The position numbers and the translations under genes were made by a program. A DNA stretch of 64,000 bases from an uncultured Candidatus Rokubacteria bacterium (GTDB taxonomy: Bacteria; Methylomirabilota; Methylomirabilia; Rokubacteriales; CSP1-6), in NCBI GenBank assembly GCA_963789955.1, contig CAWBMV010000016.1, positions 32,001-96,000 on the forward strand, written 5' to 3'. This document shows, one piece after another, positions 26,169 through 61,260 of the stretch (the stretch's first letter is position 1; every line of letters begins with the position of its first letter). A model generated the notes under the pieces. The model searched no databases, was not told the origin of the DNA, and worked only from the letters and a program-made list of their open reading frames with translations.

Positions 26169-26723
26169 ATGAAGTCCGCGTCTTCTGACTCGGCGCTCGA
26201 GCATCAAGGCCACGACGAGAGGTTCGCGCCGCTCTGGTACGTGCTGCGGACGCGCTCGCGTCACGAAAAGACGGTGCGCGATCAGCTCGTGCGCCGAGAG
26301 GTCGAGACTTTTCTGCCCATCGCCGAGCGCTGGAGCCGCTGGAAGGATCGGCGCAAGAAAGTCGCCTTCCCACTTTTTCCCGGCTACTGCTTCGCGCGTT
26401 TCTCGCTCGTCGACCGCCTCCGGGTCCTGAACGTCGTCGGGGTCGCCGATCTCGTCGGGATCAGCGGCCGGCCCGAGCCCGTCCCGGACGCCGAGATCGA
26501 AGCGATTCAACGTCTGGCGAGCACGACCTTGCAGTACGATCCGCACCCGTTCCTGGCCGAAGGCATGGACGTCGAGGTCGTGCGCGGCCCCCTCGCCGGC
26601 GTCCGCGGCAAGCTCCTGCGCAAGGACCGTGTGACGCGGCTGGTGCTCTCCGTCACGCTCATCCGCCAGGCCGCGGTCGTCGAAATCCATCCGGCTGACG
26701 TCGTTCACGTAAGCGGCCCCTAG
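26169..26723 (+). CDS. UpxY/RfaH-like NusG paralogue transcription antiterminator
   Basis: WYVLRTRSRHEK, RWKDRRKKVAFPLFPGYCF, KOW motif VEVVRGPLAGVRG. TATAAT at 26145-26150. Confidence 0.9.
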   Translation: MKSASSDSALEHQGHDERFAPLWYVLRTRSRHEKTVRDQLVRREVETFLPIAERWSRWKDRRKKVAFPLFPGYCFARFSLVDRLRVLNVVGVADLVGISGRPEPVPDAEIEAIQRLASTTLQYDPHPFLAEGMDVEVVRGPLAGVRGKLLRKDRVTRLVLSVTLIRQAAVVEIHPADVVHVSGP

Positions 26724-27501
26724 TTCCGGAGCAACGCTCGCGCCTGGCGGGCCGCGGCACTCTGGGGATGCTCGCGGACCACTCGCTCCCACGATCGCTT
26801 CGCTCGCGCGCCGTCACCCAGGTCCTTCTGACATAGACCGATCTTCAGCAGCGCGTCGGGCACTTTCTCGCCGCGCGGCACCGCGGCGACGAGCGCCTCG
26901 AACTCGGCCAGCGCGCCGCGCCAGTCCTTCTGCTTGTAGTAGATGTCGGCCACCAGGAACTGCGCGCTCTCGCGCAGCGGGCTGTCCGGATACGTCGCGA
27001 TGAGGTCGTAGAACGTGAGGATCGCCGCGTCGTCGGCCTTGGCGCGCAGCTGATCGACCCCTCGCCGGTAGAGGTCGGCCGCCGGCGTCGTGGTCGCCGA
27101 GCCGAGCAGCGGCGGCGCTGCGGGCGGCGCCGGGGCGGTGCGGCGCGCTCGGCGCGAACCCGCTCGGCGCGGCCGGCAGGCGACCGCGATTCGGCGACTC
27201 CGAGCTCTTCCACGCGACGACGCAAGTACGTCAGCTGATCATCCTGCTGTCGCGAGGCCGCGATGAGCTTGGCGACGGCGTTCTGGAGCTCGGCGAGCTC
27301 GCTGGCGATGCGCGCGACCTGCTCGTTGGAGCGATTCGGGTCGGCGGCGGCTCCCGACGGCTGGTTCGCGCCGGCGGCGGGTCGCGGCGAGTCGGCCGTC
27401 GCCGGCTGCTTGCCCACCTCGGCGCAGCCGGCAAGCATGAGCGCGACCATCGCGGCACCGAGAAGCGTGCCGAAGCGGAGCGCCGGGGTCGCGGTAGTCA
27501 C
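26720..27501 (-). CDS. CpoB/YbgF-like TPR lipoprotein (frameshifted)
   Basis: Lipobox MLAGC, coiled coil, TPR C-terminus KVPDALLKIGLCQ..VVREHPQSAAARQA. Confidence 0.75.
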
Positions 27502-28031
27502 GGGCTGTTCGCCGTCGTCACGGACACGAACGCGAGCGGCCATTGAGCGTGCGCCCGCACCTGGAGCGTCACGGTCGTCTCGCGGCTCAGCGGCACGTCG
27601 ACGAGCCAGAGCCAGCCCTCCGGCACGTTCAACGACGGATAGCTCCGCACGATCTCGCCGCGCGCGAACACATACTGGGCCTGCCCGGCGGCGCGCGTGT
27701 GCACGCGCTCCCCGAGGACCAGGGTCCCTCCGTTCGTGACGCAGAAGAGATAGTCGATCTCCTCTGCCGGAGAAGTCCGGATCACCCGAACGGGCGCCGT
27801 GCGTCGCGTGGACTTTCCGGCGATGCTCGTGGAGATCTGCTCGAGCGTCGAATACGCGACGGGCGCCTCGCGCATGGCGAAGAGCTCGTTGCCCTGGCTC
27901 TGGACGCGGATCATCGATTGATCCAGGGCCGCCACCGGCCGCGACTGAGGCTCTACGCGCGCGGCGACGATCAGGAGCGAGGCGACGGCGGCGAGCGTCA
28001 CCACGGCCTGGAGCGCGGACCCGCGCGTCAT
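27498..28031 (-). CDS. Hypothetical exported protein
   Basis: N-terminal hydrophobic segment; ATGA/GTGA overlaps with both neighbours. Confidence 0.65.
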   Translation of the reverse strand: MTRGSALQAVVTLAAVASLLIVAARVEPQSRPVAALDQSMIRVQSQGNELFAMREAPVAYSTLEQISTSIAGKSTRRTAPVRVIRTSPAEEIDYLFCVTNGGTLVLGERVHTRAAGQAQYVFARGEIVRSYPSLNVPEGWLWLVDVPLSRETTVTLQVRAHAQWPLAFVSVTTANSP

Positions 28032-28936
28032 CCCGGCGCCGCCCGGCCCTGGAGCGCGATCCAGTCGCTCCGGCCGCCGATCCAGCCGCGCACCACTCTG
28101 GCGATGGGCAGCTCGTCACCCGCGGTGATCGCGCGCGCCGCGAGCTCGTCGAGTCGCGTGAGCCGCGCGCGCACCGCCGCGAGCTCCGCCAGGAATGCCG
28201 CGAACGTCGCGAGCAGCGCGCCGCCTTCCACCTCGGCGTGGAGCGTGAACACGTTGATGCCCGGCCGCACCGCCTGCGCGAGCGCCTGCGGGACGTTCGC
28301 GACGCGGCCCATGACCTCGTCCATCGTCGGCATCGTCGTCGGCAGCTGGATGGTCTCGAGCGCGCCGTCGCCGACGCTCGGCCGGAACGGCGTGTCGCCA
28401 CGCGTGTCGCTCGCGTAGCGGAAGCCGCGGCCGTCCTGGACCGTGAGCGCCAGCGGCGAAGTCCGCCACCCGGGCGCCGCGCTCGCGGATGGCGCGACGC
28501 CGACCGCGGCCAGGAACGACCGCGCGGCCAGATCCAGATCGGCGCGGATCGCCACGTGGTCCAGTCGATGGATGCGATCCTGCCAGCCGACGTGGTCCCA
28601 GCCGTGCGGCGCGACCTCGTGCCCTTCATCGGCGATCTGACGGAGCATCGCCGGCGCGCCGGCGCCGACCAGCCTCGCGGGCACGAGCGTGCCGGACAGC
28701 AACGTGCGGAGCCCGTAGAGCTTGAACGGGTTCGTGCGCCACATCTTGGCGAGAAAGCTCGGGCGCAGCGCGCGGCGGATCGCCCGCCCGGAGTGGTCCG
28801 GCCCCATGGTCACGAAGAAGGACGCGCGGACTCCGAGGCGCCGGAAGAGCTCGAGCAAGCGCGGGACCCCTTCGTCCAGACCACGGCGCGTGTCGACGTC
28901 CACGCGCAGGCCGACCGTCGCGCGATCGGTCAGCAT
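28028..28936 (-). CDS. arnD: ArnD-like deformylase (polysaccharide deacetylase fold)
   Basis: GLRVDVDT, ASFFVTMGPDHSGRA, HGWDHVGWQ, AAPGW, QLPTTMPTMDE, FTLHAEVEG. Confidence 0.85.
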   Translation of the reverse strand: MLTDRATVGLRVDVDTRRGLDEGVPRLLELFRRLGVRASFFVTMGPDHSGRAIRRALRPSFLAKMWRTNPFKLYGLRTLLSGTLVPARLVGAGAPAMLRQIADEGHEVAPHGWDHVGWQDRIHRLDHVAIRADLDLAARSFLAAVGVAPSASAAPGWRTSPLALTVQDGRGFRYASDTRGDTPFRPSVGDGALETIQLPTTMPTMDEVMGRVANVPQALAQAVRPGINVFTLHAEVEGGALLATFAAFLAELAAVRARLTRLDELAARAITAGDELPIARVVRGWIGGRSDWIALQGRAAPG

Positions 28937-29867
28937 CAGAGACGCGTCCCCGGGCGCACAGCCCGGCGCGCCGCCCAGCGGTCGGCAGGCTCGGCGACGC
29001 CGCCGGCGCTTTGCACGCGCGTGATCAGGAGCATGCCCCGGCCCGTCGCCACGGCGATGCCGCGCGCCGGAACGATCTCGACCACGGTCCCCGGCGCGGC
29101 GTCGCTCGCCGAATCCTCGTGGATCGACGCGGCCCACAGGTGGACACGCGCCGGGCCGTCGCCGACGAACGCGCCGGGATAGGGCTCGGCGACCGCGCGA
29201 ATCATGTTGAAGATCCGGGCGGCCGGCCAGGTCCATTCGATCCGGCCGTCCTCGGGACGTCGCCGCGGCATGGTCGTCGCCAGCCTCGGATCCTGTGGGA
29301 TCCGCGGCGCCCGGTCGGCGAGCACCGCCGGGTAGGACTCGAGCAGCAGCTCCACGCCGATCTTCGTCATGCGCTCGTACACGGTGAAGGCGGTGTCGTC
29401 CGGCTCGATGTCGATCGGCCGCTGGGCCACGATGTCGCCCGCGTCGGCGGTCGCGGTCATGTGATGGAGGGTGATGCCGGTGCGCGACTCGCCGTGCACG
29501 ATCGCCCAGTTGAGCGGCGCACGGCCGCGGTACGCCGGCAGCAGCGAGCCGTGCAAATTCAACGCCGCGATTCGCGGCAGCGCCAGAAGCGCGGGCCCCA
29601 GGAGCCGGCGATACCACACGGAGAGCATGAGTCGGGCGCGAGCTCGCGAACGTCTCGACGGTCGCGGGGCGATTCGGCGAAGGCGGCGTGAGACAGGGAA
29701 TCCGATAGATGCGCGCGACGTCGGCGACCGACTCGAACCAGCTCCGTTCACCGGGATCGTCGGCGTGGGTCACCACGGCCGCGACGTGCTCGCCTCGTGA
29801 CGAGCGCCTCGAGCACGCGCGCGCCGATCGTGTGATAGGCGAAGACGGCCCACCGCGCGCGCGTCAC
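28936..29867 (-). CDS. Stand-alone ArnA-type formyltransferase (frameshifted)
   Basis: VFAYHTIG, VVTHADDPGE..WF, LNLHGSLLPAYRGRAPLNW, ADAGDIV, RRRPEDG, PYPGAF. Confidence 0.85.
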
Positions 29868-30634
29868 TCGAGCACCTCGGCGATCACGTAGCGCGGCCCG
29901 CGCCGCGCTTCCTGATAGATCCGGCTCACGCGCGCGCCGATCGGCCGGAGTGCGAGCACCTGGACCGAGAGGTCGAAGGCCAGGCCGAGGAGCCGCAGCG
30001 GCCCGTACCGGGAGCGTCCGTGCTCGCGGGCGCGGTGGTCGACGGGAATCTCGGTCATCGAGGACGCGAAGGCCGCGGCGAGCACCGGAAGGTAGCGCCG
30101 GGTGCCCCGGAACGCGAGGATCCGGTCGATCACCGATCGCCGGTACGCGCGCAGCATGCATCCGTAGTCGCGAAGCCGTACGCCGATCGCGGCCGACGTC
30201 ACGTGATTGACGAGCCAGGACGCGGCCCGCCGGCCCCAGGGATCGCGCCGGCTCACGCGCCGCCCGCCGACGACGTCCGCGCCGGTTTCGAGCGCCGCGA
30301 GCAGCCGCGGAATCTCCTCGGGCGGATTCTGCAGATCGGCGTCGAGCGTCACGACGATCTCGCCGCGGGCGCGCTCCATGCCGGCGAACAGCGCGGCGTG
30401 CTGCCCGTAGTTGCGATTGAACCGGATCATCCGCACGGCCGCGTCGCGGGCGCGGAGCGCGCGAAGGACGTCCGCCGAGTCGTCGCGGCTCCCGTCGTCC
30501 ACGAAGATGATCTCGTGCGGGCGGCCGATCTTCTCGAGCGTGCGCGCGAGCCGCTGATGGAGCGCGACGAGACTCGGCGCCTCGTTGAACACGGGGATCA
30601 CGATCGACAGCGCCGGCCGCGCGCCGTCGCTCAT
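29864..30634 (-). CDS. ArnC-like polyprenyl-phosphate GT2 glycosyltransferase (no C-terminal TM hairpin)
   Basis: VIPVFNE, VDDGSRD, RNYGQHAA, TLDADLQNPPEEIP, DYGCMLRAY, RIYQEARRGPRY. Confidence 0.88.
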   Translation of the reverse strand: MSDGARPALSIVIPVFNEAPSLVALHQRLARTLEKIGRPHEIIFVDDGSRDDSADVLRALRARDAAVRMIRFNRNYGQHAALFAGMERARGEIVVTLDADLQNPPEEIPRLLAALETGADVVGGRRVSRRDPWGRRAASWLVNHVTSAAIGVRLRDYGCMLRAYRRSVIDRILAFRGTRRYLPVLAAAFASSMTEIPVDHRAREHGRSRYGPLRLLGLAFDLSVQVLALRPIGARVSRIYQEARRGPRYVIAEVLE

Positions 30635-31947
30635 CGCCCGGCCTCCCGGACCAGCAGGCAGTCGTTGTGGCCGCCGAAGCCGAACGAGTTCGAGATGGCG
30701 GCGCGGATGCGGGCGGGCACGGCGGTGTTGGGCACGTAGTTGAGGTCGCATTCGGGATCCGGCACGCGGTAGTTGATCGTCGGCGGGGCGATCTGGTCGC
30801 GCACCGCCAGCACCGTGGTCGCGAGCTCGATCGCGCCCGCGGCCGAGATCGTGTGGCCGATCATGGATTTGGTCGAGCTCACCAGGAGCCGCGGGGCCTC
30901 GGCGCCGAACACGGTCTTGATCGCGGCGGTCTCCACACGGTCGTTCATCGGCGTCGAGGTTCCGTGCGCGTTGACGTAGTCGACGTCGGGCGGGCTCAGC
31001 TCGGCGTCGGCCAGTGCCAGGCGCATCGCGCCGATGGCACCCCGCCCGTCCGGCGCCTCGTCGGTGACGCGATAGGCATCGCAGGTGGTCCCGTAGCCCG
31101 CGATCTCCGCGAGCGCCGGAGCCCCGCGACGACGCGCATGGTCGGCCGCCTCGAGGACGAGAAAGCCGGCGCCTTCGCCGATCACGAAGCCGTCGCGCCG
31201 AGCGTCGAAGGGCCGGCTCGCGGTCTCCGGCGTTCCGTTCTGGCGCGACATGACCCCGAGCAGGCAGAAGAGCTGCACCTCGATGGGCGCGACGATGCAC
31301 TCGGCGCCGCCGGCCAGCGCCACGTCGATCGTGCCGCGGCGGATCGCGCGGTACGCCTCGCCGATCGCCTGTGCCGACGACGTGCACGCGGTCTGGATCG
31401 TCGCCGTCGGTCCCTCGACCGCGAAGTGCCCGGCGAGCCGCGCGGCCAGGTACTGCGGCCACGTCCGGTAGGCCGCCCGGGCGGCGGCCCGGCGCGCGAA
31501 CTCGCCGACGAATCCGGCGCGGGTCACGCCGCCGCCGGCATCGCGGCTCGCGTACGCGATGGCGCCGAGATCGCGCAGATCCTGGCGCTCGCCGCTGGTA
31601 CCGACGAAGACGCCGGCGCGCCGCGACGCGAGCACCGCACGGGCGCCGGCCGCCGCGACGGCGCCGCGGGCGGCGCGCACACCCACCACGACGCCGCGGG
31701 GCTCCCGCGCATCGAGCGCTGCCTCGGCCCGGAGCTCGTCGATCAGCGCCCGATCGTCGAGCGAGGCGGCGATCTGGGTCGGAAGCCCTTCGGGATCGAA
31801 GTGGGAGATGCGCTTGACGCCCGACACGCCGGCGAGCGCGGCCTTCCAGAAGGTGTCCGCCTCGGCGCCGATCGGCGTCACCAGGTCGAGCCCGGTCACG
31901 ACGACCCGCCGGCGCGCGCCCGCGTCAGGCGAGGAGCGAGTACCCAC
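30631..31947 (-). CDS. Beta-ketoacyl-ACP synthase (FabF/KS type), intact Cys-His-His triad; start uncertain
   Basis: TACTSS, SRPFDARRDGFVIGEG, NAHGTST, KSMIGH, SNSFGFGG. Confidence 0.92.
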   Translation of the reverse strand: MGTRSSPDAGARRRVVVTGLDLVTPIGAEADTFWKAALAGVSGVKRISHFDPEGLPTQIAASLDDRALIDELRAEAALDAREPRGVVVGVRAARGAVAAAGARAVLASRRAGVFVGTSGERQDLRDLGAIAYASRDAGGGVTRAGFVGEFARRAAARAAYRTWPQYLAARLAGHFAVEGPTATIQTACTSSAQAIGEAYRAIRRGTIDVALAGGAECIVAPIEVQLFCLLGVMSRQNGTPETASRPFDARRDGFVIGEGAGFLVLEAADHARRRGAPALAEIAGYGTTCDAYRVTDEAPDGRGAIGAMRLALADAELSPPDVDYVNAHGTSTPMNDRVETAAIKTVFGAEAPRLLVSSTKSMIGHTISAAGAIELATTVLAVRDQIAPPTINYRVPDPECDLNYVPNTAVPARIRAAISNSFGFGGHNDCLLVREAGR

Positions 31948-32677
31948 CGTCCACCGTCAGGACCTGCCCCTGGATCGCCTGCGCCGCCGGGCTCGCGAGA
32001 AAGTAGACGACGCCGGCGACTTCGTCCGCCGTCACGAGTGCCCGGCCCGGCGTGCGCTCGCGGATCGCCGCGAGCGCCGCCGTGCCGTCGGGCATCGCCT
32101 GCCACACGTCCGTCTCCACGGCCCCGGCCGACACCGTGTTCACGGTGATGCCCTTCGCGCCGAGCTCGACGGCGAGGTAGCGCGTGAGTCCCTCGAGCGC
32201 GGCCTTCGACACGCCGATCGACGCATAGCCCGGAATGACACGCTGGCTGCCGAGGCTCGACAGCGCGATGATCCGGCCGCCCGGCGTCATGATCCGCGAG
32301 GCTTCCTGGGCCAGGATCAGCAGCGCGCGCGCGTTGGTCGCCATGACCCAATCCCACTGCTTGGGCGAGAGATCGAGCCCGTCCCGCAGCACGCCGGATG
32401 CGGCGTTGCTCACCACGACGTCGAGACGACCCGCGCGGTTCTTGATCTCGGCCACCAGCCGCTTGATCTCCGCCGGCTCCTTGAGGTCGGCCTGCAGCAG
32501 GTGCGGCACGCCGCCGCGCAGCTCCACGTCGTGCGCCGTCTTTTCCGCGGCCTCGCGATTCACGAAGAAGTTCACGAAGACCAGGGCGCCGGCCTCGGCG
32601 AAGCGCAGCGCGATCGCGCGCCCGATGCCGCGGCCGCCGCCGGTCACCAGCACGCTGCGCGGTGTCGCGTCACTCAT
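31925..32677 (-). CDS. FabL-like enoyl-ACP reductase (SDR)
   Basis: TGGGRGIG, SNAASGVLR, SSLGS, Y-x6-K (YASIGVSK), RYLAVEL. Confidence 0.82.
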   Translation of the reverse strand: MSDATPRSVLVTGGGRGIGRAIALRFAEAGALVFVNFFVNREAAEKTAHDVELRGGVPHLLQADLKEPAEIKRLVAEIKNRAGRLDVVVSNAASGVLRDGLDLSPKQWDWVMATNARALLILAQEASRIMTPGGRIIALSSLGSQRVIPGYASIGVSKAALEGLTRYLAVELGAKGITVNTVSAGAVETDVWQAMPDGTAALAAIRERTPGRALVTADEVAGVVYFLASPAAQAIQGQVLTVDGGYSLLA

Positions 32678-32680
32678 GCG

Positions 32681-33160
32681 TCACGCGCCGCCGTCTCGCG
32701 GCGCGAGACCGGCGGGCACCGGCGTGAGCTCGCGCGCGAGCGCGCCGAGCCGCGCGGCATGGCGTTCCGCGTCGGTCCCGGGGGCCGCCGGCTCGAGCTC
32801 GTACTCGAGGGTCGCCGCCGCGACCCGGCGCGACTCGACCATCGCCGTCGCGTCGAGCACCCAGCCGTCGTCGCTTCGCCGCTCGCACCGGATCGCGAGC
32901 TGATCGCCGGGACGCACGGGATGCCGGAATGCGACGCGTGAGAGCCGGCGCAGCCGCCCGACCTCGGCGAACTCCCGGCTCAGCGCGATCAGGAGCTGGC
33001 ACGCCTGCGCGAACGCCTCGACGACGAGCGCGCCCGGCAAGACCGGGTAGCCGGGAAAGTGGTCGGCGAACACGTCGTCGAGCCCGCTCACGTGCTTCGA
33101 GGTCTCGATCCGGCGAGGGACGTCGAGCTTCACGATGCGGTCCACGAACACGAAGCGCAT
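32681..33160 (-). CDS. FabZ/FabA-like 3-hydroxyacyl-ACP dehydratase
   Basis: MRFVFVDRI, DHFPGYPVLPGALVVEAFAQ, FRHPVRPGDQL. Confidence 0.88.
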   Translation of the reverse strand: MRFVFVDRIVKLDVPRRIETSKHVSGLDDVFADHFPGYPVLPGALVVEAFAQACQLLIALSREFAEVGRLRRLSRVAFRHPVRPGDQLAIRCERRSDDGWVLDATAMVESRRVAAATLEYELEPAAPGTDAERHAARLGALARELTPVPAGLAPRDGGA

Positions 33161-33192
33161 CCTGGTGGACGGCGCGCGGCGCCGTCGTCTCC

Positions 33193-33801
33193 TCAGGCTC
33201 CGGCGGCGAGCCGCCCGGCGGCCGCGAGCTGGCCCACGAGGTACTCGGTGACGGCGTGAACGGTCAGCCGGCTCATGACGGCCTCGACCGCGTCCGGCGA
33301 GTGCAGGTTCTTCTCGAGATAGCCGGCGAGCTGGTCGACCTCGAGGCCCGACAGGTCGAGCGGGGTCAGCGCGAGATCGTCGAGCATGCGGGTGACGAGC
33401 ACCGTGACGACCTCGCGCGCGTCGCCGGAGACTCGGGCGATACCGTGCTTGGCGGCCATGTGCTCGAGCACCGCGCCGACCGTCGCCGGCGACACCATGC
33501 GCAGCTCCTCGGCCGCCACCGCGACGCGATACCGCGCCTCGAGCACGCGGGCCAGCACGCTCAGGTCGCGCCACTCGATCCGGCGCTCCTGGATCAGTCG
33601 CATCGGCAGGTCGACGCCGAAGGTCTGCTGACACTTGAAGCTCAGGTCGAGAAAGTCGATCGACTCGGCGCCGAGATCCGCGATCAGCGCGGCCTCCGCC
33701 GTCACGTTCCCCTCGTCGACGCCGAGTGATTCGACGATGAGCTTGCCCACGCTCACGCGAACTTCGGGTCGAGTCCAGATCTTCCTGGTATCGGGCTCCA
33801 T
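33193..33801 (-). CDS. Enlarged acyl carrier protein (202 aa)
   Basis: DLGAESIDFLDL phosphopantetheine site, followed by a large insertion before the terminal TVHAVTEYL helix. Confidence 0.8.
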   Translation of the reverse strand: MEPDTRKIWTRPEVRVSVGKLIVESLGVDEGNVTAEAALIADLGAESIDFLDLSFKCQQTFGVDLPMRLIQERRIEWRDLSVLARVLEARYRVAVAAEELRMVSPATVGAVLEHMAAKHGIARVSGDAREVVTVLVTRMLDDLALTPLDLSGLEVDQLAGYLEKNLHSPDAVEAVMSRLTVHAVTEYLVGQLAAAGRLAAGA

Positions 33802-33817
33802 GCGCTCCCCGGCCTCC

Positions 33818-34564
33818 TCAGCCGATTCCGCCGTCGACGGCGATGACCTGGCCCGTGATGTAGCTCGCCTCCTCCGAGGCGAGGAACACGGCCAGCGCGG
33901 CCACCTCTTCGGGGCGACCCACGCGCCGCATCGGGATCCACTCCCGAATCTTCGGCGCGGCCATGCCGATGAACGGACGGCTCATGTCGGTCTCGATCAA
34001 TCCCGGCGCGATCGCGTTCACCGTGACGCCCCGGGCGCCGAGCTCCCGCGCCAGGGCCACGGTGAAGGCGTTGACGCCGCCCTTCGACGCCGCGTAGCCG
34101 ACCTGGCCGCGGCCGGCCCGCGACGCCAGCACCGAGCTCACGTTGATGATGCGGCCCCAGCCCTGGCGGAGCATGTGCCCGGCGCCCAGACGCGCACAGC
34201 GAAAGACGGCGTCCAGGTTGGTCTCGAGCACCGACGCCCACTCGTCGTCCGGCGTCTCGACGAACAATCCCTCGCGGCTGATCCCCGCGTTGTTCACCAG
34301 GACGTCGAGCCGGCCCGCGCGCTCGACGACCGCACCGATCAGCGCCTCGGTCTGGGCCCGGTCGCTCACGTCGGCCTGGTACACGAAGCCGTGTCCGCCG
34401 GCCGCCTCGATCGCCCCCAAGGTTTCCTTGGCGCGCTCGTGCTGCTGGCGATAGTTGATGCACACCGTCGCGCCCGCCCGCGCCAGCGCGATGGCGATGG
34501 CGCGTCCGATACCGCGCGAGGCGCCGGTGACGAGCGCGGCGCGGCCGGTCAACGCGATCTGCAT
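33818..34564 (-). CDS. FabG-like 3-oxoacyl-ACP reductase
   Basis: TGASRGIG, NNAG, YAASK, APGLIETDM. Confidence 0.9.
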   Translation of the reverse strand: MQIALTGRAALVTGASRGIGRAIAIALARAGATVCINYRQQHERAKETLGAIEAAGGHGFVYQADVSDRAQTEALIGAVVERAGRLDVLVNNAGISREGLFVETPDDEWASVLETNLDAVFRCARLGAGHMLRQGWGRIINVSSVLASRAGRGQVGYAASKGGVNAFTVALARELGARGVTVNAIAPGLIETDMSRPFIGMAAPKIREWIPMRRVGRPEEVAALAVFLASEEASYITGQVIAVDGGIG

Positions 34565-34571
34565 GCCGGCG

Positions 34572-35829
34572 CTAGCTCCGCATCATGAGCGCCGAGCACT
34601 CGCCGAAGAGCCCGAGCGTGAGCACCAGCACGGAGCGTAGCACCGGAGTCGTCGCGGGGCTGGGGCCCCGCCGGCCGAGGCGCGATTCTGGATCATGGTC
34701 CGACACGTCGGGCGGCACGGTCGCGTGGCGGAGCGCCGACGAGCACGCCAGGAGCTCGACGGGGCTCGCGGCGGCGCCGAGGTCGGCGTGAGCCGCCTTC
34801 AGCTTGAGCCGTGGCGCCGACGGCGTCACCGCGCCGAGCGTGCGCGCGAGCGCTGCATCTTCGGCCCGATCGTGGGCCGGGATGCCGTCGCCGTGCAAGC
34901 TCACCAGATCGGGAGCGGTCTTCGCTTCCTCGAGCACCGTGTCGATCACTCGAGTGAGCCGGTCCGCCAGCCGCTGCGGATCGTCGCCGCCTCCGAGGCG
35001 GCCATCCCCGGCCGCCGAGGCGAAGCCGACCATCTCGCCGTGCACGCGCGCACCCCGTGCGATCGCGTGCTCGGCTTCTTCCAGCACGAGCAGGCCGCTG
35101 CCTTCACCCGGGACGAGGCCGGGCCGTCCATCGTCGCCGGCGATCACGCCGCCGCCCCAGTGCGTCGCGAAGAACAGCTCCTCGAGCTGGTCGTCGGCGC
35201 CGCCGCAGAGGGCGACGTCGAGATCGCCCTCGCTCGATGAGCCGCACGGCATCCCCCACCGCGCGCGCGCCGCCGACATGGCCCTCGGTCAGGGCCCGGC
35301 AGAATCCCTGCGCGTCATTCGCGATGGCCAGATGACCGGCGATCAGGTTCGGCAAAGTCTTCAGCGAGAAGTCGAGCGGGTTGATCGAGCGCATGCAGAA
35401 GGCGCTCGCGCGCGCCACGTCGAGCGTGCCCGGGGAGACCGTCGACTCCGACGCCGCGAGGTACTCCAGCATCGAGCCGAGATCCCAGGCGAGCATGTTC
35501 ACCCCGAGCAGCACGCCGAAGCGCCGCGGATCACCGGCGCCCGCGACGAGCCCCGCGTCTTCCATCGCGAGCGCGCCGCCGAGCATCGCCAGGAGCGTCG
35601 CGCGGTTCCAGAGCTTCTGCTGCTTGCGCGGCAGGCGCGCGAGATGAGGCTGAATGGCGTCCGGCGCCACCTCGGCCCCGCGCGACGCCGGCAGCCCGAG
35701 CGCGGCGAGCCGATCCCGGCGGCCGACGGCCGAGCGCCCCGCGCAGAGCGCCTGCCAGTGCGGCTCGATCCCGACGCCGAGCGGCGAGACGACGCCGCGC
35801 CCGGTCAGCACGACGCCGCGCCCCCTCAT
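34572..35829 (-). CDS. Catalytically degenerate ketosynthase (chain-length-factor-like; frameshift near 35230)
   Basis: VVLTGRGVVSPLG, LKTLPNLIAGHLAI, PGEGSGLLVLE. The Cys position reads EGHVGG and the second His position reads AHADLG. Confidence 0.8.
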
Positions 35830-36111: not shown

Positions 36112-36149
36112 GCAGAGACGGGTCGAGCGACCGGAGACGAGTGGTGGCG

Positions 36150-38759: not shown

Positions 38760-38763
38760 GTTC

Positions 38764-46568: not shown

Positions 46569-46569
46569 C

Positions 46570-49634: not shown

Positions 49635-49641
49635 GCCGCCC

Positions 49642-53308: not shown

Positions 53309-53318
53309 ATCGCGGGTG

Positions 53319-54351
53319 TTACGCGCCCTGACCGAACGCCATGCGGACACCGTCCTTGAACGACAGGGGCTCGCGACCCAGGAGCGCGCGAAGGGCGGAC
53401 GGGTCGCCTAAACAGTGTCGCATGTCCCCCGCCCGATACCCGCCGACAACCTCAGGCGGGCAATCGACCCCGAGCGCCTCGGCGATCCGCTCGCAGGCCT
53501 CGCCGAGCCGGGTGGGGACACCTGAGCAGACGTTGGTGACCGGCTGGCGCCGGTCGCGCCGCCCAAGCACGGCCAGGATGGCGGCCACGACGTCGCCGAC
53601 GAAGACCCAATCGCGGATCTGCCGCCCGTCCTCGAAGAGCTTCGGCCGCTCACCCGCCCGCGCCCAGCCCGGCGATCCGCGCGATGATGGTGGCCTCCCC
53701 ATCGTCCAGCCGCAGGCGGGACCCGTACACGGACGAGAAGCGCAGAATCGAGACCGGGCACGCGGTAGAGCCCCTGAAGCAGAGCTCCTGCATGTACTTC
53801 GAGGCGCCGTACGTCTCGAGAGGATCCGGCGCGCGCCGTCTCCGTGATCGGCTGGATCTCCATGTCGGCGCCGCACTCGCGGCAGCGCACCTCGAAGCGC
53901 CCAGCGTCGAGGTCGGCCGGGCTTCGCGTCCCGTCGCCCTCGCGCGCGCACCGCGCGCACCGATACGTGTAGTTGGCCCCGTAGACGCTGAAGCTGGACG
54001 CCAGCACGACGCGGCGCAACCGGGTCCAGCGCCGCGCGGCCTCGACGAGCCGTCCCGTGCCGGCGCAATTCGCCTCCAGGATGTTGGCGGGCTCGCGCGC
54101 CGCGCGTGCGACGCCGCCGAGCGCCGCCAGATGCACGACGGCCTCGACGTCGTCGAAGCCGTGCGTCCGGCTCGAAGTCGGCGCAGGTCGACGATGCGAT
54201 AGTCGACATCCGCGCGAAGGTAGGTCGGCCGCTCGCGATGGACGCCGGGATCGAGGCTGTCGACGCAGACGACGGCGGCGCCCGCCTCGCGGAGGGCATC
54301 CACGACGTGCGAGCCGATGAAACCGGCGCCGCCCGTCACCAGGACTTTCAT
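53319..54351 (-). CDS. NAD-dependent sugar epimerase/dehydratase with CxxC..CxxC insert (frameshifted)
   Basis: TGGAGFIG, HLAA, YGASK, FEDGRQIRDWVFV, YRAGDMRHC. Confidence 0.85.
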
Positions 54352-55317
54352 GCGCGTGCGCTCAAGGTCGCGGCGATCCGCTCACGATGCTCGCGAAACC
54401 AGTCGACCGTTCGCTCGATGCCCTCGCGAACGCTCACCGCTGGCGCGAATCCCAGTGTGGCCCGCGCCTTGCCGATGTCCGCCTCGCGGTGGGTCGAGCG
54501 GTCCCAGGGCCGCCGCGGCGCGAACTGGATCGGGCTCGCGGAGCGGCACGCCTTGACGATCATCTCCGCCAGATCGATGACGCGGGTCTGAACACCGGTC
54601 CCGAGGTTGAACGCGTCGCCGCGGGCCGCGGGCATCTCGGCGCTCGCGAGCAGACCGTCCGACGAGATCGTCGACGAAGATGAAATCGCGCGTCTCTTCT
54701 CCGGTCCCGGTGATGACCAGCGGCTCGCCGTGCAGCGCGCGCCAGATGAAGTTCGGGATCACGTTTCGGTAGGCGCCGGGCACTTCGCCCGGACCATACG
54801 AGTTGAAGAAGCGGCAGCGCACCGTGGTGCACGCGGGCATCGAAGTAATTGCAGTAGAGCTCGCCCAGCGCCTTCGTGATCTGGTAGGGCGTGTCGAGCG
54901 CGAGGCTCACCGGCATGTCCTCGCGAATCGGCCCGTCGACGCCGTGACCGGCGATCGAGCAGCCGGCCGACGCGTAGACGAAGCGTTCCGCCCGGCGCGC
55001 CTCGGCCCACATGAGCGCCGTGAGCGTGCCGAGACCGTTCGTGTGCAGATCGTCGCGCGGATGATCCACGCTGTTCTGATTCGCGAAGAAGGCGGCGAGG
55101 TGGAAGACCAGCGGGCCATCCGCCCGAGGCCCAGATCGAAGATCCGGCACACGTCGCCTCGCGTGAGTCGGACTCGCGGATCTGAGGGGAGCAGCCACTC
55201 ATACCCCGACGACAGGTCGTCGACGACCTCCACGTGCGCGACGTCACGCTCCAGCAATCGCCGGACGAGCCAGGATCCGATCGCGCCCGCGCCTCCGGTG
55301 ACGACGACGGTCTTCAT
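54348..55317 (-). CDS. NAD-dependent sugar epimerase/dehydratase (frameshifted)
   Basis: TGGAGAIG, HLAAFFANQNS, YQITK, RFFNSYGP, TRDFIFV. Confidence 0.88.
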
Positions 55318-56423
55318 GCTCGTTCGACTGCGGGCGCGCGGCCGGCGCGCCACGCCGCTTCGTGGATCGCGCGCGCGTACCGCGGCCACACACGCTCGAT
55401 GTCGCAGCGCTCGACCACCGTCTGGCGTCCGCGCCCACCGATCTCGCGCGCCCGATCGGGTCGTGAGAAGAGCTCGACGACGCGCTTCGTCATGCCGGCG
55501 ACATCGCCCACCTCGACGAGGAATCCGTTATCTTCGTGACGAATCAAGTCCGGAAGGCCTCCCACTCCGGTCGCGACGACAGGCAGCCCGACGGCCATCG
55601 CCTCGATTACCGCGTTCGGAAGCCCCTCGGAATGGCTGGGAAAGAGAAACACGTCGCTCTCGCCGAGCACGCGTTGAACCTCGTGACGGCCGAGCCAGCC
55701 CGTGGTGCGCGCCGCGCCCGACAATCCCGCGCTGGCGACGCTCTCGCGGAATGCGTCCAGATCGCGGCCGCCACCGACGATGGTGAGCGTCGCCGAGGGG
55801 TGAACCGTTCGAACGCCAGCAAGAACCTCGAGGGCCTCGAAGACCCCTTTCTCGCGCGTCACCCAGCCGACGAAGACGATGCGGCCCCCGGGAGCATGCG
55901 GGACGGCAGGGTCGCCGAGCCTCACACCATTCGAGACCTCGATGACCTTGTCGCCGCCCGCGAAACGACCGAAGTAGGTCGTCCAGTACCCGCTCTGCGT
56001 GCACACGCAGTGAGCGCTCCTGAGCACCAGCCGCAGCCAGGTGCGCAGCACCGGCCACCGGGCACACTGCTCGGGAACATTGCCGCCGCTGATTCGCAGC
56101 ACCACCCCGCGACGAGCCAGGCGCGCGAGAATGCACATCCATCCCTTCTCGAGCAGGCTGACCGCGTCCGCCGCGAAGACGAGTACGACGTCGGCCGCCC
56201 AGAGGCGCCTGACGAACCGAGAGAGCCTGGCGACGGCCCTCGCGGCGCGTCGAGGCAGTGCCGGTGGCGGCACGGACGGCAGGGCCGTGGACAGCAATTC
56301 CAGCTCGACCGCGGAGGCCAGGCTGCTCTCGAAGAGCGCGTTGGCCGCGACAGCCTGGCCTCCGGTCGCGCCGCCCGCGCCCGCCGCGACCGAGGCGACG
56401 AAGAGGACGCGCAGCCGGCTCAC
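55314..56423 (-). CDS. GT4 glycosyltransferase
   Basis: FVGWVTREKG, FLFPSHSEGLPNAVIEAMA, GGLPDLI. GTGA overlap with the upstream gene. Confidence 0.9.
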   Translation of the reverse strand: MSRLRVLFVASVAAGAGGATGGQAVAANALFESSLASAVELELLSTALPSVPPPALPRRAARAVARLSRFVRRLWAADVVLVFAADAVSLLEKGWMCILARLARRGVVLRISGGNVPEQCARWPVLRTWLRLVLRSAHCVCTQSGYWTTYFGRFAGGDKVIEVSNGVRLGDPAVPHAPGGRIVFVGWVTREKGVFEALEVLAGVRTVHPSATLTIVGGGRDLDAFRESVASAGLSGAARTTGWLGRHEVQRVLGESDVFLFPSHSEGLPNAVIEAMAVGLPVVATGVGGLPDLIRHEDNGFLVEVGDVAGMTKRVVELFSRPDRAREIGGRGRQTVVERCDIERVWPRYARAIHEAAWRAGRAPAVERA

Positions 56424-58335
56424 GTCGTGGACGGCGGTTCCACTCGACCGAGAATGCACCGCCGCCAGCGAAAGAACGTGTACAGCAGGAACGACCGATG
56501 AAGCGCTCGATAGCTGTCGTGGCGCCGGCACCGTTCCATGTCGGCGCGGACCTGTCGTTCCAGGGCGACGCGGTTGAGCTCCGCGTCCGGGTCGCGCGCG
56601 TAAGCATCCACCTCCCGGCGGAGCGCGGTCCAGAAGCGCTCGCCCAGCCATCGCGAAACCGGGAGCGTGAAGCCGCGCTTGGGCGCCGCCGAGGACGGGC
56701 TGAGGCAGACGGCCGGCCAGCGCCTCTCGAAGTACGCGCTTGCCGAGGCCTCCACGGACCTTGAGATGCCCAGGCAACGCGAGCGCGTACGCCGCCAGGC
56801 GGGAATCGAGGAACGGGGCGCGGACCTCGAGCGATTCGGCCATCGACATCCGATCGACCTTCGTGAGGATGTCTTGCGGCAGTGAGACGCGGAGCTCGTG
56901 AAGTGACATGGCGAGCAAGGGATCCTTCACGCCCTGCCACAGCCGGCGCGACTCCTCCCGCATCACATCGATCTGCTCTCGCGCCTCGCACTCCCAGGGC
57001 GTCGCGCGAAAGAGCTCGAGCAGGGCGTCATCGCTAAAGAGCCCTTCCATCGAGTGCGGCAGCAAACCCGCTGGGACGGCGCCGTTGAGCTGAAAGGCCC
57101 TTTGAACTCCTTCCCACCGCCCGTGGTCTGGGAGCATGCGGGACAGGACTCCGGAGGTACACGCGCCCAACCAGCCTCCTCCCAGACGCCGGAGGCGGTC
57201 CGTCCGCAGGTGCGACAGGTAGCCGCCAAAGAGCTCGTCGCCGCCGTCACCCGACAGCACCACGCGGAAGTGACGCCGAGCCGCCCGCGACACCGACCTG
57301 GTCGGGATCGCGCTCGTGTCGTGGAACGGCTGCCCGAAATGCTGCAAGAGCTCGTCGACGACCACTTCCGAAAAGGAGGCCGTCTGAGCGCTCTCCTCGT
57401 GAAGCTCGATCCCGAGGCGGGCGGCCGTCTGCCGAGCGAGCGGGCGTTCGTCGTGCGCGGCGTCATCGAATCCGACTGTGACGGCGGCGATGCTCGATGT
57501 CGCTCGAACGGCGGAGGCGGCGATCGCGCTCGAGTCGATCCCGCCGCTCAGGAAGAGCCCGACGGGCACGTCGGCGACCAGCCGCTCGCGGACACTCGCG
57601 TCCAGCAAGGCCAGGATCTGCGAGCCGCACCGCTCGAGCCGAGCCACATTCCTCGTCGACGCGGTCGGGCAAGCACCAATAGTGCCCGGACTCCTCGGCT
57701 CCGGCGGACGATCGCCGCAGCCAGGTCCCGGGACGCAGCTCCGAGATGCCCTCGACGGCGCTGATCCCCGGCCAGGGGTAGCCGGCCCGAAGAATCGCGG
57801 CGAGCCCGCGAGCGGACGGCCGCCGGGCCGAGCGGGCCGTGAGCACGAGCGGCGCGAGCTCGCTGCAGAAGGCGAAGCCATCGCGCCGATCGACGTACAG
57901 CGGCTTCTCGCCGAATCGGTCACGAGCCAGCCACAGATCACCGGCGGGGATGTCGACCGCGGCGAAGCTGAACATGCCCTCGGCCGACGCGAGCGCGCCG
58001 GGGACCCCGCGCTCGGCGATCAGCTCGAGCAGCACTTCCGTGTCGGAGGCGGTCCGGAACCGGACGCCTCGTGACGCCATCTCGGCGCGGAGCCGGACGA
58101 AGTTGTAGATCTCGCCATTCAGGACCAGACACCAGCGCCCATCGGCGCTCGTCATCGGCTGGAGTCCCCGCCGAGGGTCGATGATGGCGAGCCGAACCAT
58201 GCCCAGGCGCCACGTCACGCCACGCCATTCGCCCGAGTCGTCGGGGCCGCGATGCTGGAGCATCCCGAGCATCTTGGAGACGTCCGGGCCTCCTGCGTCC
58301 AGTGCTCGTCGATCGGTCCCGGCGATACCGCACAC
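56420..58335 (-). CDS. Asparagine synthase-like glutamine amidotransferase (frameshifted)
   Basis: CGIAG, HRGPD, NGEIYN, RDRFGEKPLY, LSGGIDSS, SGDGGDELFGGY, DRMSMAESLEVRAPFLD, KRGF. Confidence 0.9.
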
Positions 58336-58339
58336 GGGC

Positions 58340-59782
58340 TCAGCGCTCCCCGCCGGTCATCGACTCGACGGTCGGCGACGGCAATCGCCGGCGACGACCG
58401 AGCCACGCCGCGACGAAGACCGCGGGGACCAGCGAGCCGACGATGCCCGCTTTCAGGAGCGAGGCGAAATCGCCCCGGATCATCATGATCGACAGCGACA
58501 CGACGACGGCGTAGACGAGGATGCGGCTCTTGCTGAACGGCGCGAGACGTCGATAGGTCACGGCGGCCCGGACCACGATCCCCTCGACGAAGGCCACGGC
58601 GGCCGCCCCCAGGATTCCGAAGTTCAGGTACCCCTCCGCCAGCAACGCGTAGCTGTATCCGCCTCCGGCGGCCGCGATCCCCGGATCGATCAGATTTACG
58701 AACCACTGGCTCGGCGCGATCGGTCGCTCCGGGTGCAGCGGCAGCGGAATCAGGATCTCGAAGGCGTCGACGAAGCTCCGGCCCAGCCAGAACGGCTCCT
58801 GCGCGGGAACTTGATAGATCGTCTCGGTCAGCGCGAGCAGGACCGTGACCGGCTCGGCCATCAGATTGACGAGTTCGTCGAGACCGAATTGCTCCACCAG
58901 ACGCGTCAGGATGCCGCCGAAACCTTCGGCGAGATAGGCGCGAGCGAGCCCCACCGCGGCGAACACCGGCAGCGCCAGGGCCGCGCCGATAACCAGCGTT
59001 CGTAGCCGGATCCGACGCGTGGAGAAGTGATGCGCAACCAGGAGCGCCAATATCGTCTCGAGCACCACGCGACGACGGCCGATGCGCAGCATGAGCAGGG
59101 CGAAGACCGAGAACAGGATCCACGGAAGGATCGGCGTGCGGCGGCCCCATTCCGCCGTCGTCAGATACAGCACGACGAGTCCGGTTTGCGCCAGCATCAC
59201 GCCCGCGGCCAGAACGCCGAGTCCCGCGATGGCCTCGTATCCTCGCGCGTATGCCGACTCGACCAGTGTCTCGACACCGACGGTCCCGACCAGGGTGCCG
59301 ACCAGCGCGGTCCCGAGGATCAGGAGCCCCGACGAGATCGCGAGACCCTCGCCTCGCGTCCAGTCGCCTTCGGCCCGCGGCATGAGTCCGGCGAGCGCGG
59401 GTCCGGCGGGGCTCGAATAGCCGAACAAGAAGGCGAAGAGGGCGATGAGCGCGACACCGATGATGCCGGACTCGAGGTGGAGGACCAGGCCGATGAAGCG
59501 TGGCACCTCTCCGACCGCCAGCCAGAAGAACGCCACCACCGGAACCACCACGTAGATACCGAAGAAGACGAGGAACACCGTGTCCATCTCGACGAGGTCG
59601 CGGGGATGGGTGGCGCAGCGATACCAGAGCGCCGCGAAATACGCGATGACCAGCACGGTCAACCAGATGTCGACCGGGCTCAGCACATCGGGCATCGCGA
59701 GCGCCACGATACCCGCCGAGAGCACGAGCACGTTCAGGACAGCGAGCGAGCTCAGCCACGGCGACGACAGCACGGCTCTCAC
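58340..59782 (-). CDS. wzy: O-antigen/EPS polymerase (Wzy-like)
   Basis: Multiple TMs, GRRR, periplasmic loop, LLAEGYLNFGILG, IRGD. The GTG start overlaps the upstream stop. Confidence 0.78.
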   Translation of the reverse strand: MRAVLSSPWLSSLAVLNVLVLSAGIVALAMPDVLSPVDIWLTVLVIAYFAALWYRCATHPRDLVEMDTVFLVFFGIYVVVPVVAFFWLAVGEVPRFIGLVLHLESGIIGVALIALFAFLFGYSSPAGPALAGLMPRAEGDWTRGEGLAISSGLLILGTALVGTLVGTVGVETLVESAYARGYEAIAGLGVLAAGVMLAQTGLVVLYLTTAEWGRRTPILPWILFSVFALLMLRIGRRRVVLETILALLVAHHFSTRRIRLRTLVIGAALALPVFAAVGLARAYLAEGFGGILTRLVEQFGLDELVNLMAEPVTVLLALTETIYQVPAQEPFWLGRSFVDAFEILIPLPLHPERPIAPSQWFVNLIDPGIAAAGGGYSYALLAEGYLNFGILGAAAVAFVEGIVVRAAVTYRRLAPFSKSRILVYAVVVSLSIMMIRGDFASLLKAGIVGSLVPAVFVAAWLGRRRRLPSPTVESMTGGER

Positions 59783-61260
59783 GAGGTCGCCCACAGGCGG
59801 CGGCGCAAGGGGCGCGTCCATTCCATCCCGGTCGCCGTCATGCTCCCGATGAACGCGAGCGCCGCGAGCGGCACGTACACGATCATTTCGACGGCGCTGT
59901 ACTGGGCCGGAAGCAGACTCCGCAGCGCAACGGCTCCGGCGCCGAGCAGCGCGCCCGACGCCAGCGCAGTCCAGGGGCGCAGGGCCGAAAAGCTCACGCG
60001 ATAAGCATGAGCGACGTACCGCAAAGTCAGGACGGCCAGCGTGACGCGCGACAGCAGGTAGGCGAGGCCAAGGGCTGCCATCCCGGCCAGACGCAGCCAG
60101 CCCAGCAGTGCCGAGGCGACGCCGAAGACGAGGATGGCGGCACAGAGGTTGCGGGTATTCACCGCCCGCTCTGTCTCGCCGTCGATCAGACCTCTCAGAC
60201 AGGCGAAGAGGAACGAGGGGGTCAACGAGAGGCACACCATCGCCGCGACCCCGGCCGCCGCGTCGTACTCGGGGCCGAGCCAGACCCGGATCAGCACGTC
60301 AGCCCAGATGACCATCTGGAAGGTCGCGAACGTGCCGCCGTGCAGCGCCCACTGGGCAACCTGGCGAGCCCGGGCTGCATGCGTATGGAAGTCTCCCCGT
60401 GCGATCGCGGCGGCCGACGCCGGGATCAGCACCTGGCTCAAGGCGCCGCTGATCGGATTGAGTGGCCTCATGAGCGCCAGGCCGATCGCCAGATAGCCCG
60501 CGCCGATCAGGCCCGCGCCTGACACGACGGCGATCCACGGCAAAGTCAGATCGAGAGCCGGCTCGAGGGCGCTGGCCGGCACTCTGCGCAGGCCGTATCG
60601 CAGCAGGACGGCGGCTTCGCGGAACGGACTCGGCCCGACTTGACTCCAGATCCAGCGGGCGATTCGCAGCAGCGACGGCAGCGTCGTGACGCCAGTGGCC
60701 ACCGCGGTCCACGTGATGACGGTCGAGAGGCTCGTATCACGGAGCAGCAGAACACACACCAGTGGCGACAGCCCGAGCGCGGCGACCGCCGTCCCCACCG
60801 ACTCCAGCACATGCTCGCGCGCGAGCTGAATCAGGCTCACCATCGTAGTGAAGGCCTGAGCGTACGTGAGCCATATGAATGCCCGCCACAGATGTTCGGC
60901 TCCGGGATGATCGAGAAGCCGGGCGATCGGCTCCGCGAAGACCACGCTCACGGCGCACCCAGCGGCGAGGCTCGCTCCCGCGAGGACGAGACCAGTCAGC
61001 GCGGCACCGGCGGCACGATCCGGCTTCGAGCCGAGGTACGCGACGGTCCGCTGCAGCGCGATCGGCAGTCCGAGCGCCGCGCACGCGAGCAGCAGTGATC
61101 CGTACAGCCTGAACAGGAGCACGGCCGAGAGGTCGAGGCCTCCATACCTTTGGGTATAGGCACGCGTGACCAGCAAGGTGAACCCGGCGATGAGCAGGCT
61201 GCCGGCACTGACGAGACAGGTCCGGCTGAGCAGTCGCTTCGAGGAGAAGGTCAATTTCAA
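59779..61260 (-). CDS. wzx: Oligosaccharide flippase (Wzx-like)
   Basis: About 12-14 TM segments, LGLPIALQR, LLRYG, LIRVWLGPEY..AA. Confidence 0.78.
   Translation of the reverse strand: MKLTFSSKRLLSRTCLVSAGSLLIAGFTLLVTRAYTQRYGGLDLSAVLLFRLYGSLLLACAALGLPIALQRTVAYLGSKPDRAAGAALTGLVLAGASLAAGCAVSVVFAEPIARLLDHPGAEHLWRAFIWLTYAQAFTTMVSLIQLAREHVLESVGTAVAALGLSPLVCVLLLRDTSLSTVITWTAVATGVTTLPSLLRIARWIWSQVGPSPFREAAVLLRYGLRRVPASALEPALDLTLPWIAVVSGAGLIGAGYLAIGLALMRPLNPISGALSQVLIPASAAAIARGDFHTHAARARQVAQWALHGGTFATFQMVIWADVLIRVWLGPEYDAAAGVAAMVCLSLTPSFLFACLRGLIDGETERAVNTRNLCAAILVFGVASALLGWLRLAGMAALGLAYLLSRVTLAVLTLRYVAHAYRVSFSALRPWTALASGALLGAGAVALRSLLPAQYSAVEMIVYVPLAALAFIGSMTATGMEWTRPLRRRLWATS

Follow-up and report, generated by a model that had tools for sequence, protein, structure and literature searches.

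Private type II synthases, in which a ketosynthase (KS) is paired with a second, inactive KS and uses a specialized acyl carrier protein (ACP), are already known from anammox bacteria, rhizobial lipid A, and aryl polyene lipids. Excerpts of two anammox studies (PMC4790861, PMC2649909) describe clusters with a PaaK-like ligase, a glycosyltransferase, and a noncanonical FabF, and excerpts of a preprint on amxFabF (bioRxiv 10.64898/2026.05.19.726425) and of a further article (PMC10139942) describe heterodimers of a KS with an inactive KS that use a private ACP. The rhizobial cluster for fatty acids of very long chain (VLCFA) consists of five genes, namely, acpXL, fabZXL, fabF1XL, fabF2XL, as well as lpxXL (PMC5613085, in excerpt), and aryl polyenes are type II synthase products found in an amino-sugar-containing membrane lipid (bioRxiv 10.1101/2020.12.19.423268, in excerpt). 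Here we analyzed a stretch of 64,000 nucleotides (the window, G000:C16:32001-96000) from an uncultured Candidatus Rokubacteria bacterium; G000, the window's own genome, is 87% complete and comprises 38 contigs. The window holds a run of 32 minus-strand genes, from 61260 down to 26720, in which genes for a Wzx/Wzy-type polysaccharide, a type II synthase cassette, and genes resembling those of the Arn pathway follow one another.

An initial annotation of the window had reported this co-oriented run, its gene order, and the identities of its genes, all of which we confirmed, and had read the run as a single pathway for a lipid-anchored polysaccharide. The observation was real and correctly described, and it was over-interpreted as one pathway. 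We tentatively propose, with a confidence just short of even, that the run is an envelope cluster of separable modules, the conserved core of which would be a second (orthogonal) type II synthase, dedicated to an envelope lipid that bears an amino sugar. The Wzx/Wzy polysaccharide locus is strain variable, lying upstream of the synthase under a predicted separate promoter, and the lipid is likely not an obligatory anchor of the polysaccharide. In Rokubacteriales, the polysaccharide may bind or use the cassette lipid, with no class-wide requirement.

The synthase cassette and its long carrier protein

The cassette consists of the following genes, given in the order of the run.

38872..40236, minus strand: PaaK-like adenylating ligase, the cassette's core partner (match to PaaK in the PDB, E 1e-29)
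35826..36111, minus strand: pseudo-dehydratase, DH' (frameshifted; FabA-like match for an f7 orthologue)
34572..35829, minus strand: chain-length-factor-like KS' (frameshifted)
33818..34564, minus strand: FabG-type ketoreductase (KR)
33193..33801, minus strand: 202-aa ACP with a helical insertion of ~110 aa and one phosphopantetheine serine, S47
32681..33160, minus strand: FabZ-type dehydratase (DH; DHF motif, His kept in orthologues)
31925..32677, minus strand: FabL-like enoyl reductase (ER; best NCBIfam match FabL, 286 with a cut-off of 328)
30631..31899, minus strand: FabF-type KS, predicted to be active (Cys-His-His triad intact)

FabF proteins head the list of PDB matches of the KS. The triad was kept in none of 29 KS' orthologues, 26 of which lacked the Cys, and the catalytic His of DH' was missing in all 25 rows shown. 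In line with the initial annotation, this synthase is a dedicated second one: a housekeeping plsX-fabH-fabD-fabG-acpP-fabF locus is present on another contig. The order of the synthase genes is identical in three families of the phylum (f1, f7, and f11) and in a Binatia-like lineage (KR was not called in G242), and quick trees of KS and KS' largely track family lines. A 35-nt stretch of KS' (window 34650-34684) attracts high-depth matches from many unrelated contigs.

The ACP contains a single serine motif, GAESIDF, and about 110 additional residues between helices II and IV. Its model (pLDDT 93.7) resembled most closely the anammox amxACP (7AUF; Z 11.5, rmsd 2.1, 87 aligned), followed by the AcpXL-type "specialized ACP" 2KW2 (Z 9.7, rmsd 2.3, 91 aligned), with which it shares the stretch DFLD(I/L)xF..FGxxLP; its score with the AcpXL model was 35.9, with a cut-off of 83. 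Two poorly aligned sequences, P0169 and P0257, were excluded from the ACP alignment. When the insertion was modelled alone (pLDDT 91.8), amxACP ranked first (Z 6.6, rmsd 2.6, 80/89 aligned), and carrier domains made up 12 of the top 15 rows of the fold search. Profile comparison gave no sequence support for a duplicated-carrier origin of the insertion (hhalign probability 2.7% and 1.8%), and a Foldseek search on the same question gave no match at E<=0.001. Helical bundles commonly reach such a Z score, and profile comparison lent no support; we therefore keep a second, nested carrier domain as a lead only, weakly suggested by the fold. The ACP architecture is unlike that of any PDB carrier found.

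In the pathway that we propose, PaaK would activate a carboxylic acid and load it onto the long ACP, a priming role suggested by the lack of FabH in the cassette. A KS/KS' heterodimer would elongate the chain and set its length, and KR, DH/DH', and ER would fully reduce it in every round, as suggested by the second short-chain dehydrogenase/reductase (SDR) being closest to FabL. The acyl group would then enter a membrane lipid. DegT, the formyltransferase, the GT2 glycosyltransferase, and the deformylase would build a polyprenyl-phosphate amino sugar, and a cassette-type ArnT would transfer this sugar in the periplasm onto the lipid bearing the chain. The cassette would be a further, fully reducing variant of the private synthases, conserved in three families of one uncultured phylum and in the Binatia-like lineage, and its product could serve as a lipid biomarker for these lineages.

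The cassette works like known systems yet fails a defining feature of each. (i) With the anammox fatty acid synthase (FAS)-like clusters kuste3603-3608 and kuste3335-3352 it shares, as far as the excerpted sources describe them, a private ACP, a FabF with a triad-less FabF, FabZ, and FabG, and with the second of them also a glycosyltransferase and a ligase of the PaaK type (PMC4790861, PMC2649909). The combination of an amxACP-type carrier with a FabF/FabF-mut pair is present as a resemblance of fold and motif only. Among the 66 window ORFs scanned, none in the run corresponded to the anammox radical SAM and phytoene-desaturase-like genes; the FabL-like ER, the pseudo-DH, the ArnT-like and Arn genes, and an ACP of 202 aa versus ~90 further distinguish the cassette. 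(ii) Its likeness to the rhizobial VLCFA cassette, a resemblance that need not reflect orthology, extends to a specialized ACP motif, two FabF-like KS, FabZ, and host lipid A genes; PaaK, KR, DH', DUF1571, and the ArnT-like gene go beyond the rhizobial set. (iii) Aryl polyene (ape) clusters comprise a KS with a chain-length factor, a DH pair, a GT2, and a carrier, and no enoyl reduction is known to take place. The cassette differs from them in its conserved FabL-like SDR of putative activity, in its lack of an acyltransferase, and in its FabF-like KS; since an ER is present, a polyene product is not expected. Literature searches gave no account of the cassette among the top-ranked matches of a partial literature coverage.

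The rhizobial likeness bears on another explanation, namely, that the run is a lipopolysaccharide (LPS) cluster in which Wzx/Wzy/Wzz make an O-antigen or O-antigen capsule, the Arn-like genes place an amino sugar on lipid A, and a very long lipid A acyl chain of the AcpXL style comes from the cassette. G000 does have LpxC, LpxB, and two LpxL-family genes, its ArnT matches lipid A ArnT, the ACP shares motif and fold with 2KW2, and the rhizobial cluster likewise has two FabF-like genes, FabZ, and an ACP (PMC5613085, in excerpt). However, the cassette core lacks LpxXL, which belongs to the five genes that define the rhizobial cluster: no such acyltransferase was found in the run or between PaaK and KS in the relatives' loci inspected (whose flanks were not Pfam scanned), and the PF03279 (LpxL-family) genes of G000 lie away from the cassette. 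No extra LpxL copy was present in two of four cassette genomes (a single LpxL-family gene is present in G077 and in G107, and likewise in G080, which has no cassette), the rhizobial cluster includes neither PaaK nor DUF1571, and f7 retains a separate ArnT next to ArnD. We consider the LPS explanation rather unlikely.

Two other FAS-like cassettes were seen in G000. One (G000:C3:155471-161157) contains an SDR, an ACP of 191 aa that ends in a CxxC-rich C-terminal tail, KS, two FabZ, KR, and a Cys-less KS and resembles metagenome loci with 130-aa GAESID carriers. The other (G000:C37:218463-232399), with an LpxL-family acyltransferase, an ArnT-like gene, a GT2, an ACP, and several KS genes, is from its gene content presumably aryl polyene-like.

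Amino-sugar genes and ArnT paralogues

The synthase genes are followed by a block of Arn-like and envelope genes.

29864..30634, minus strand: ArnC-like GT2 without the C-terminal membrane hairpin
28936..29867, minus strand: ArnA-N-type formyltransferase (frameshifted; G004 orthologue 316.5, cut-off 316)
28028..28936, minus strand: ArnD-like deformylase (best match ArnD, 250 with a cut-off of 382)
27498..28031, minus strand: exported protein of no known family (no Pfam or NCBIfam match; weak DUF6805 lead at 0.90)
26720..27501, minus strand: CpoB/YbgF-like tetratricopeptide repeat lipoprotein paralogue (frameshifted; G013 orthologue 89.3/90.1)

A DegT aminotransferase, a GT2, a formyltransferase, a deformylase, and an ArnT-like enzyme are shared with the pathway for 4-amino-4-deoxy-L-arabinose (Ara4N; arnBCADTEF). 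Unlike in that pathway, the DegT is PseC-like, and, in the sub-lineage of G000, no decarboxylase orthologue was found and ArnC lacks the membrane hairpin. No orthologue of UDP-glucuronate decarboxylase (ArnA C-terminal type) was found in G000 (87% complete), G004, G006, or G010, where the best matches had 36-38% identity, versus 68-88% for orthologues elsewhere; the amino sugar of this sub-lineage is therefore probably not Ara4N. The hydrophobic hairpin of ArnC is missing in the same four genomes out of 24 rows, and the hairpin-less ArnC evolves under purifying selection (dN/dS 0.16-0.21). A further CpoB/YbgF-like copy is found on C6.

The ArnT-like gene of G000 is located past the window end (C16:101874-103601), and its best match is under the equivalog cut-off. 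The protein matches lipid A ArnT 5EZM with an E of 2.5e-41 and has the DE and EKP motifs; the ArnT active-site motifs do not distinguish cassette paralogues from those adjacent to ArnD. In f7, cassette ArnT (8 rows) and ArnD-adjacent ArnT (8 rows) form separate clades, either with a support of 100, and both types occur in G078. The protein of G000 clusters in the tree with cassette-linked f1 proteins. Since ArnT-like, Wzi, and exporter genes recur by the cassette in three families and in the Binatia-like lineage, the connection that the initial annotation had drawn with the cell surface and with the transfer of an amino sugar was borne out.

Distribution of the modules

Taking the long ACP as the marker of the cassette, we found it in 41 of 251 genomes of the phylum (27 of 158 in f1 plus G000, 11 of 21 in f7, and both genomes of f11); the genomes are related and many are fragmented, so these and the following presence counts are descriptive and not independent. 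The PaaK orthologue was detected in 32 genomes, 31 of which have the long ACP, versus 1 of the 210 genomes without it. ArnD occurs in 45 genomes (30 with the long ACP), and the outer-membrane export protein of the run (here, the exporter) occurs in 39, that is, in 28 with and 11 without the long ACP. The cassette is usually accompanied by an ArnT-like GT-C enzyme, and many relatives add AcpS and DUF1571. No long ACP was found on plasmids, and plasmid matches of KS' and PaaK were below 60% identity (26-33% among the matches listed).

The combinations of modules vary. In four f7 genomes (G081, G069, G076, and G078, in which FAS and ArnT form a module), the order is ArnT-like, PaaK, DUF1571, (AcpS), DH', KS', KR, ACP, FabZ, FabL, and KS where the contig reaches, with no wzx/wzy, exporter, or ArnC/formyltransferase/ArnD genes adjoining (the G078 contig is short); in G076, Wzi is elsewhere in the genome. 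This compact cassette of ~11 genes is a practical expression unit. FAS is combined with Arn genes in G083 and with the exporter and Wzi in G077 and G070, and the exporter occurs with Arn genes but without FAS in G080. A metagenome locus contains Wzi, ArnT-like, PaaK, DUF1571, and AcpS genes with the synthase, and the relatives of its PaaK are named Binatia or Deltaproteobacteria.

These combinations bear on the model of the initial annotation, taken here as a Wzy polysaccharide that has the acyl-amino-sugar lipid as its anchor or carrier, with the SLBB protein as exporter and Wzi as retaining protein. An exporter and/or Wzi is found within the cassette or next to it in f1, G068, G070, G077, G107, G242, and L069, the ACP is present in 28 of the 39 exporter carriers, and a generic anchor would be expected to take the form of a constant lipid module next to a sugar block that varies. 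However, G081 (98% complete, 6 contigs, 7% contamination) and G069 (100% complete, 260 contigs, 10% contamination) carry the cassette with no exporter orthologue and no Wzi (each has a different Poly_export protein of ~380 aa), the exporter occurs without the long ACP in G080 (98%, 7 contigs), G061 (100%, 10 contigs), G062, and G082, and no glycan-lipid ligase is evident in the cassette. We regard the anchor model as unlikely; if it were true, it would bear on the attachment of Wzy-dependent capsules. Even less likely in our view is its fuller form, in which Methylomirabilota and Binatia would share an undescribed envelope glycolipid pathway; its chain, primed by PaaK and built on an ACP within an ACP, would be given an amino sugar by a dedicated ArnT paralogue, and the lipid would be the outer-membrane anchor of the Wzy capsule in Rokubacteriales.

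A third possibility is a small released metabolite, e.g., an amino-cyclitol or amino sugar acylated through an amide bond, for which PaaK would be the amide-forming ligase; hygromycin A offers a parallel. A myo-inositol-1-phosphate synthase (MIPS) gene and a second DegT precede PaaK in six loci only (G015, G027, G237, G248, G249, and L058), an inositol monophosphatase gene lies at window 25130-25918, and PaaK-like ligases (AjiA1 and what we take to be NatL2) are among the PDB matches. MIPS was, however, not found in G000 and is missing from the f7 and f11 cassettes seen, and the constant neighbours of the cassette are membrane and envelope genes, with no small-molecule exporter or regulator accompanying it. 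This possibility appears very unlikely. One such arrangement of MIPS with a second DegT is seen at L133:9187-11599.

Besides the relatedness of the genomes, several observations weigh against a separable synthase for a dedicated amino-sugar lipid. (i) Within f1, the ACP accompanies the exporter in 21 of 23 genomes, and the exporter heads a transcription unit predicted from a candidate promoter (P2, see below), which is a tighter link than separable modules need. (ii) The ArnT-like gene of G000 is on the opposite strand, ~6 kb past the window end. (iii) A single clade of all cassette-type ArnT rows has a support of 85-95, and an alternative grouping was not rejected (p-AU 0.335), in a tree from which the long-branched ArnT of G000 contig C37 was omitted. 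(iv) DUF1571, a candidate lipid carrier, was found in none of five genomes of the genus (G000, G004, G006, G013, and G015). (v) The cassette contains no acyltransferase or thioesterase that would off-load the chain.

Polysaccharide genes, predicted promoters, and assembly

The genes upstream of the synthase, the exporter, the candidate promoters, and the gene at the 3' end of the run are as follows.

61339..61344, minus strand: -10-like hexamer, candidate promoter P1 before wzx (TA[ATG]A[AC]T match)
59779..61260, minus strand: probable Wzx-like flippase (10 hydrophobic segments, weak SpoVB match, no Pfam match)
58340..59782, minus strand: Wzy polymerase (PF14296, 32.4 bits, cut-off 26.6)
48205..58335, minus strand: variable tailoring block, several genes frameshifted
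47545..48205, minus strand: initiating phosphoglycosyl transferase (frameshifted; PF02397)
45584..47555, minus strand: thiamine pyrophosphate-dependent E1 alpha/beta pair (frameshifted)
42605..45582, minus strand: DegT aminotransferase 1 and CapD/PglF-type 4,6-dehydratase
41439..42608, minus strand: Wzz/co-polymerase (PF02706, 33.3, cut-off 25.5)
40233..41434, minus strand: DegT aminotransferase 2, PseC-like by the scores of its G013 orthologue (frameshifted)
38786..38791, minus strand: -10-like hexamer, candidate internal promoter P2 before the exporter (TA[ATG]A[AC]T match)
36150..38759, minus strand: Poly_export/SLBB outer-membrane export protein, ~850 aa (frameshifted)
26169-26723, plus strand: UpxY-family NusG paralogue, convergent with the run (112.3, cut-off 100)

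Wzy, the initiating transferase, Wzz, and the Poly_export protein are all above their Pfam cut-offs, and Wzi, encoded past the window end (C16:97904-99514), likewise exceeds its curated cut-off; the Wzi and ArnT-like genes are 2-8 kb away from that end. With the UpxY-family gene, these families are shared with Wzx/Wzy capsule or O-antigen loci. The position and hydrophobicity of the Wzx-like protein fit a flippase; its family match is weak only. The tailoring block encodes an AsnB-type amidotransferase, a GT4, two NAD epimerases, a second AsnB, a further GT4, a methyltransferase, a GNAT protein, and a polysaccharide deacetylase. An ORF fusing AsnB with GT4 (55314-57941) was rejected as a frameshift artefact. 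The window's Wzy was found in 2 of 17 genomes of the genus, and the long ACP in 11 of 17. The second DegT, the E1 pair, and the UpxY-family gene are additions to the initial gene list. DegT 2, judged from its G013 orthologue, scored 398/423.5 for PseC and 293/631 for ArnB and is thus under both cut-offs and closer to PseC. An E1 alpha/beta pair similar to that of the run adjoins CapD/DegT in G248 (read by eye); inside this glycan locus, the pair may, by analogy, serve to make a branched sugar.

The initial annotation had described tight junctions between most genes and no evident terminator. Among 26 junctions computed, 13 were 4-nt ATGA/GTGA overlaps, 2 were 1-nt overlaps, and 11 were gaps of 1-38 nt; four others, read by eye, were overlaps or 1-nt gaps. 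Terminator-like sites occurred at chance frequency (6 versus 4.7±2.1 and 6 versus 7.0±2.9). The exception is the junction between PaaK and the exporter, which is probably an intergenic region of ~115 nt holding a conserved -10-like hexamer, since close PaaK orthologues stop at 454 aa, whereas the window frame continues to 490 aa. In several relatives a putative toxin-antitoxin pair interrupts this junction: two small genes on the opposite strand, by eye Phd/PIN, lie between PaaK and the exporter at L040:600-1315, L038:12179-12891, and L017:1884-2596.

Aligned upstream DNA of eight loci revealed a conserved TAnAnT hexamer 5' of the exporter, from which, after inspection, the pattern TA[ATG]A[AC]T was defined. 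On the minus strand of 26600-61500, this pattern occurs at two sites only, 61344 (before wzx) and 38791 (before the exporter), with a background of 6 sites in 476 kb of coding DNA and of 8 in 325 genes with long upstream gaps. Among loci for which upstream DNA was available, the hexamer stands before the exporter in 12 of 13 others of the f1 type and in none of 5 in other families (6 of the 24 loci surveyed had no upstream DNA); a strict sigma-70 scan reported neither P1 nor P2. Because the hexamer stands only before wzx and before the exporter, the run is likely to form two transcription units, one led by wzx and the other, the exporter-synthase-Arn block, by the exporter, and read-through from P1 into the second unit may occur. 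Contigs from RNA runs cover the region, one of them spanning FabL-FabZ-ACP; they were not used, as strand, ends, and freedom from DNA are not readable from contigs. Since modules shuffle among genomes and a second -10-like site is present, we rejected one obligate 34.5-kb pathway, and the claim of a single pathway making a lipid-anchored polysaccharide was not supported. In relatives the cassette does occur without adjoining wzx/wzy, and separate transcription of the exporter-synthase-Arn block is predicted, which is largely what the initial annotation had named as refuting its model. For the most part, the 34.5-kb fusion places familiar modules side by side in a lineage-specific way.

Unlike UpxY/RfaH-type antiterminators, the UpxY-family gene is not the first gene of the run but lies convergent at its 3' end, a position that it also occupies in f1 relatives, and no ops-like site precedes the run (5 matches versus 12.5 expected). 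Its homologues occur in 96 of 251 genomes, a far wider spread than that of the cassette. A TATAAT hexamer is located ~20 nt before its start in six of seven aligned relatives.

At least 13 genes of the run are split across frames. Intact orthologues were found in relatives and were substituted for broken window genes in family searches where needed. Short-read contigs of related strains differ from the window by 1-nt indels at three of the breaks (27197, 29630/29648, and 35234), and dN/dS was 0.09-0.34 across six run genes (NG86). The intact orthologues, these indels, and the low dN/dS suggest that the frameshifts are most likely assembly errors; decay of the locus was rejected, given relatives without frameshifts and the dN/dS values.

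A few observations concern the flanks and relatives. The Wzi protein of f7 carries a fused PAP2 phosphatase domain (L123:5587-8010), whereas G013 has PAP2 as a gene of its own, located between Wzi and ArnT. A divergent, conserved 62-aa gene without family match is found at window 25918-26106. Divergent from wzx, a pectate-lyase-like beta-helix protein is encoded at 61368-62786 (plus strand), followed by a secreted protein without family match at 62981-63772 (minus strand). An Rfam search retrieved tRNA only, a tRNA gene being located at window 1417-1488 (minus strand).

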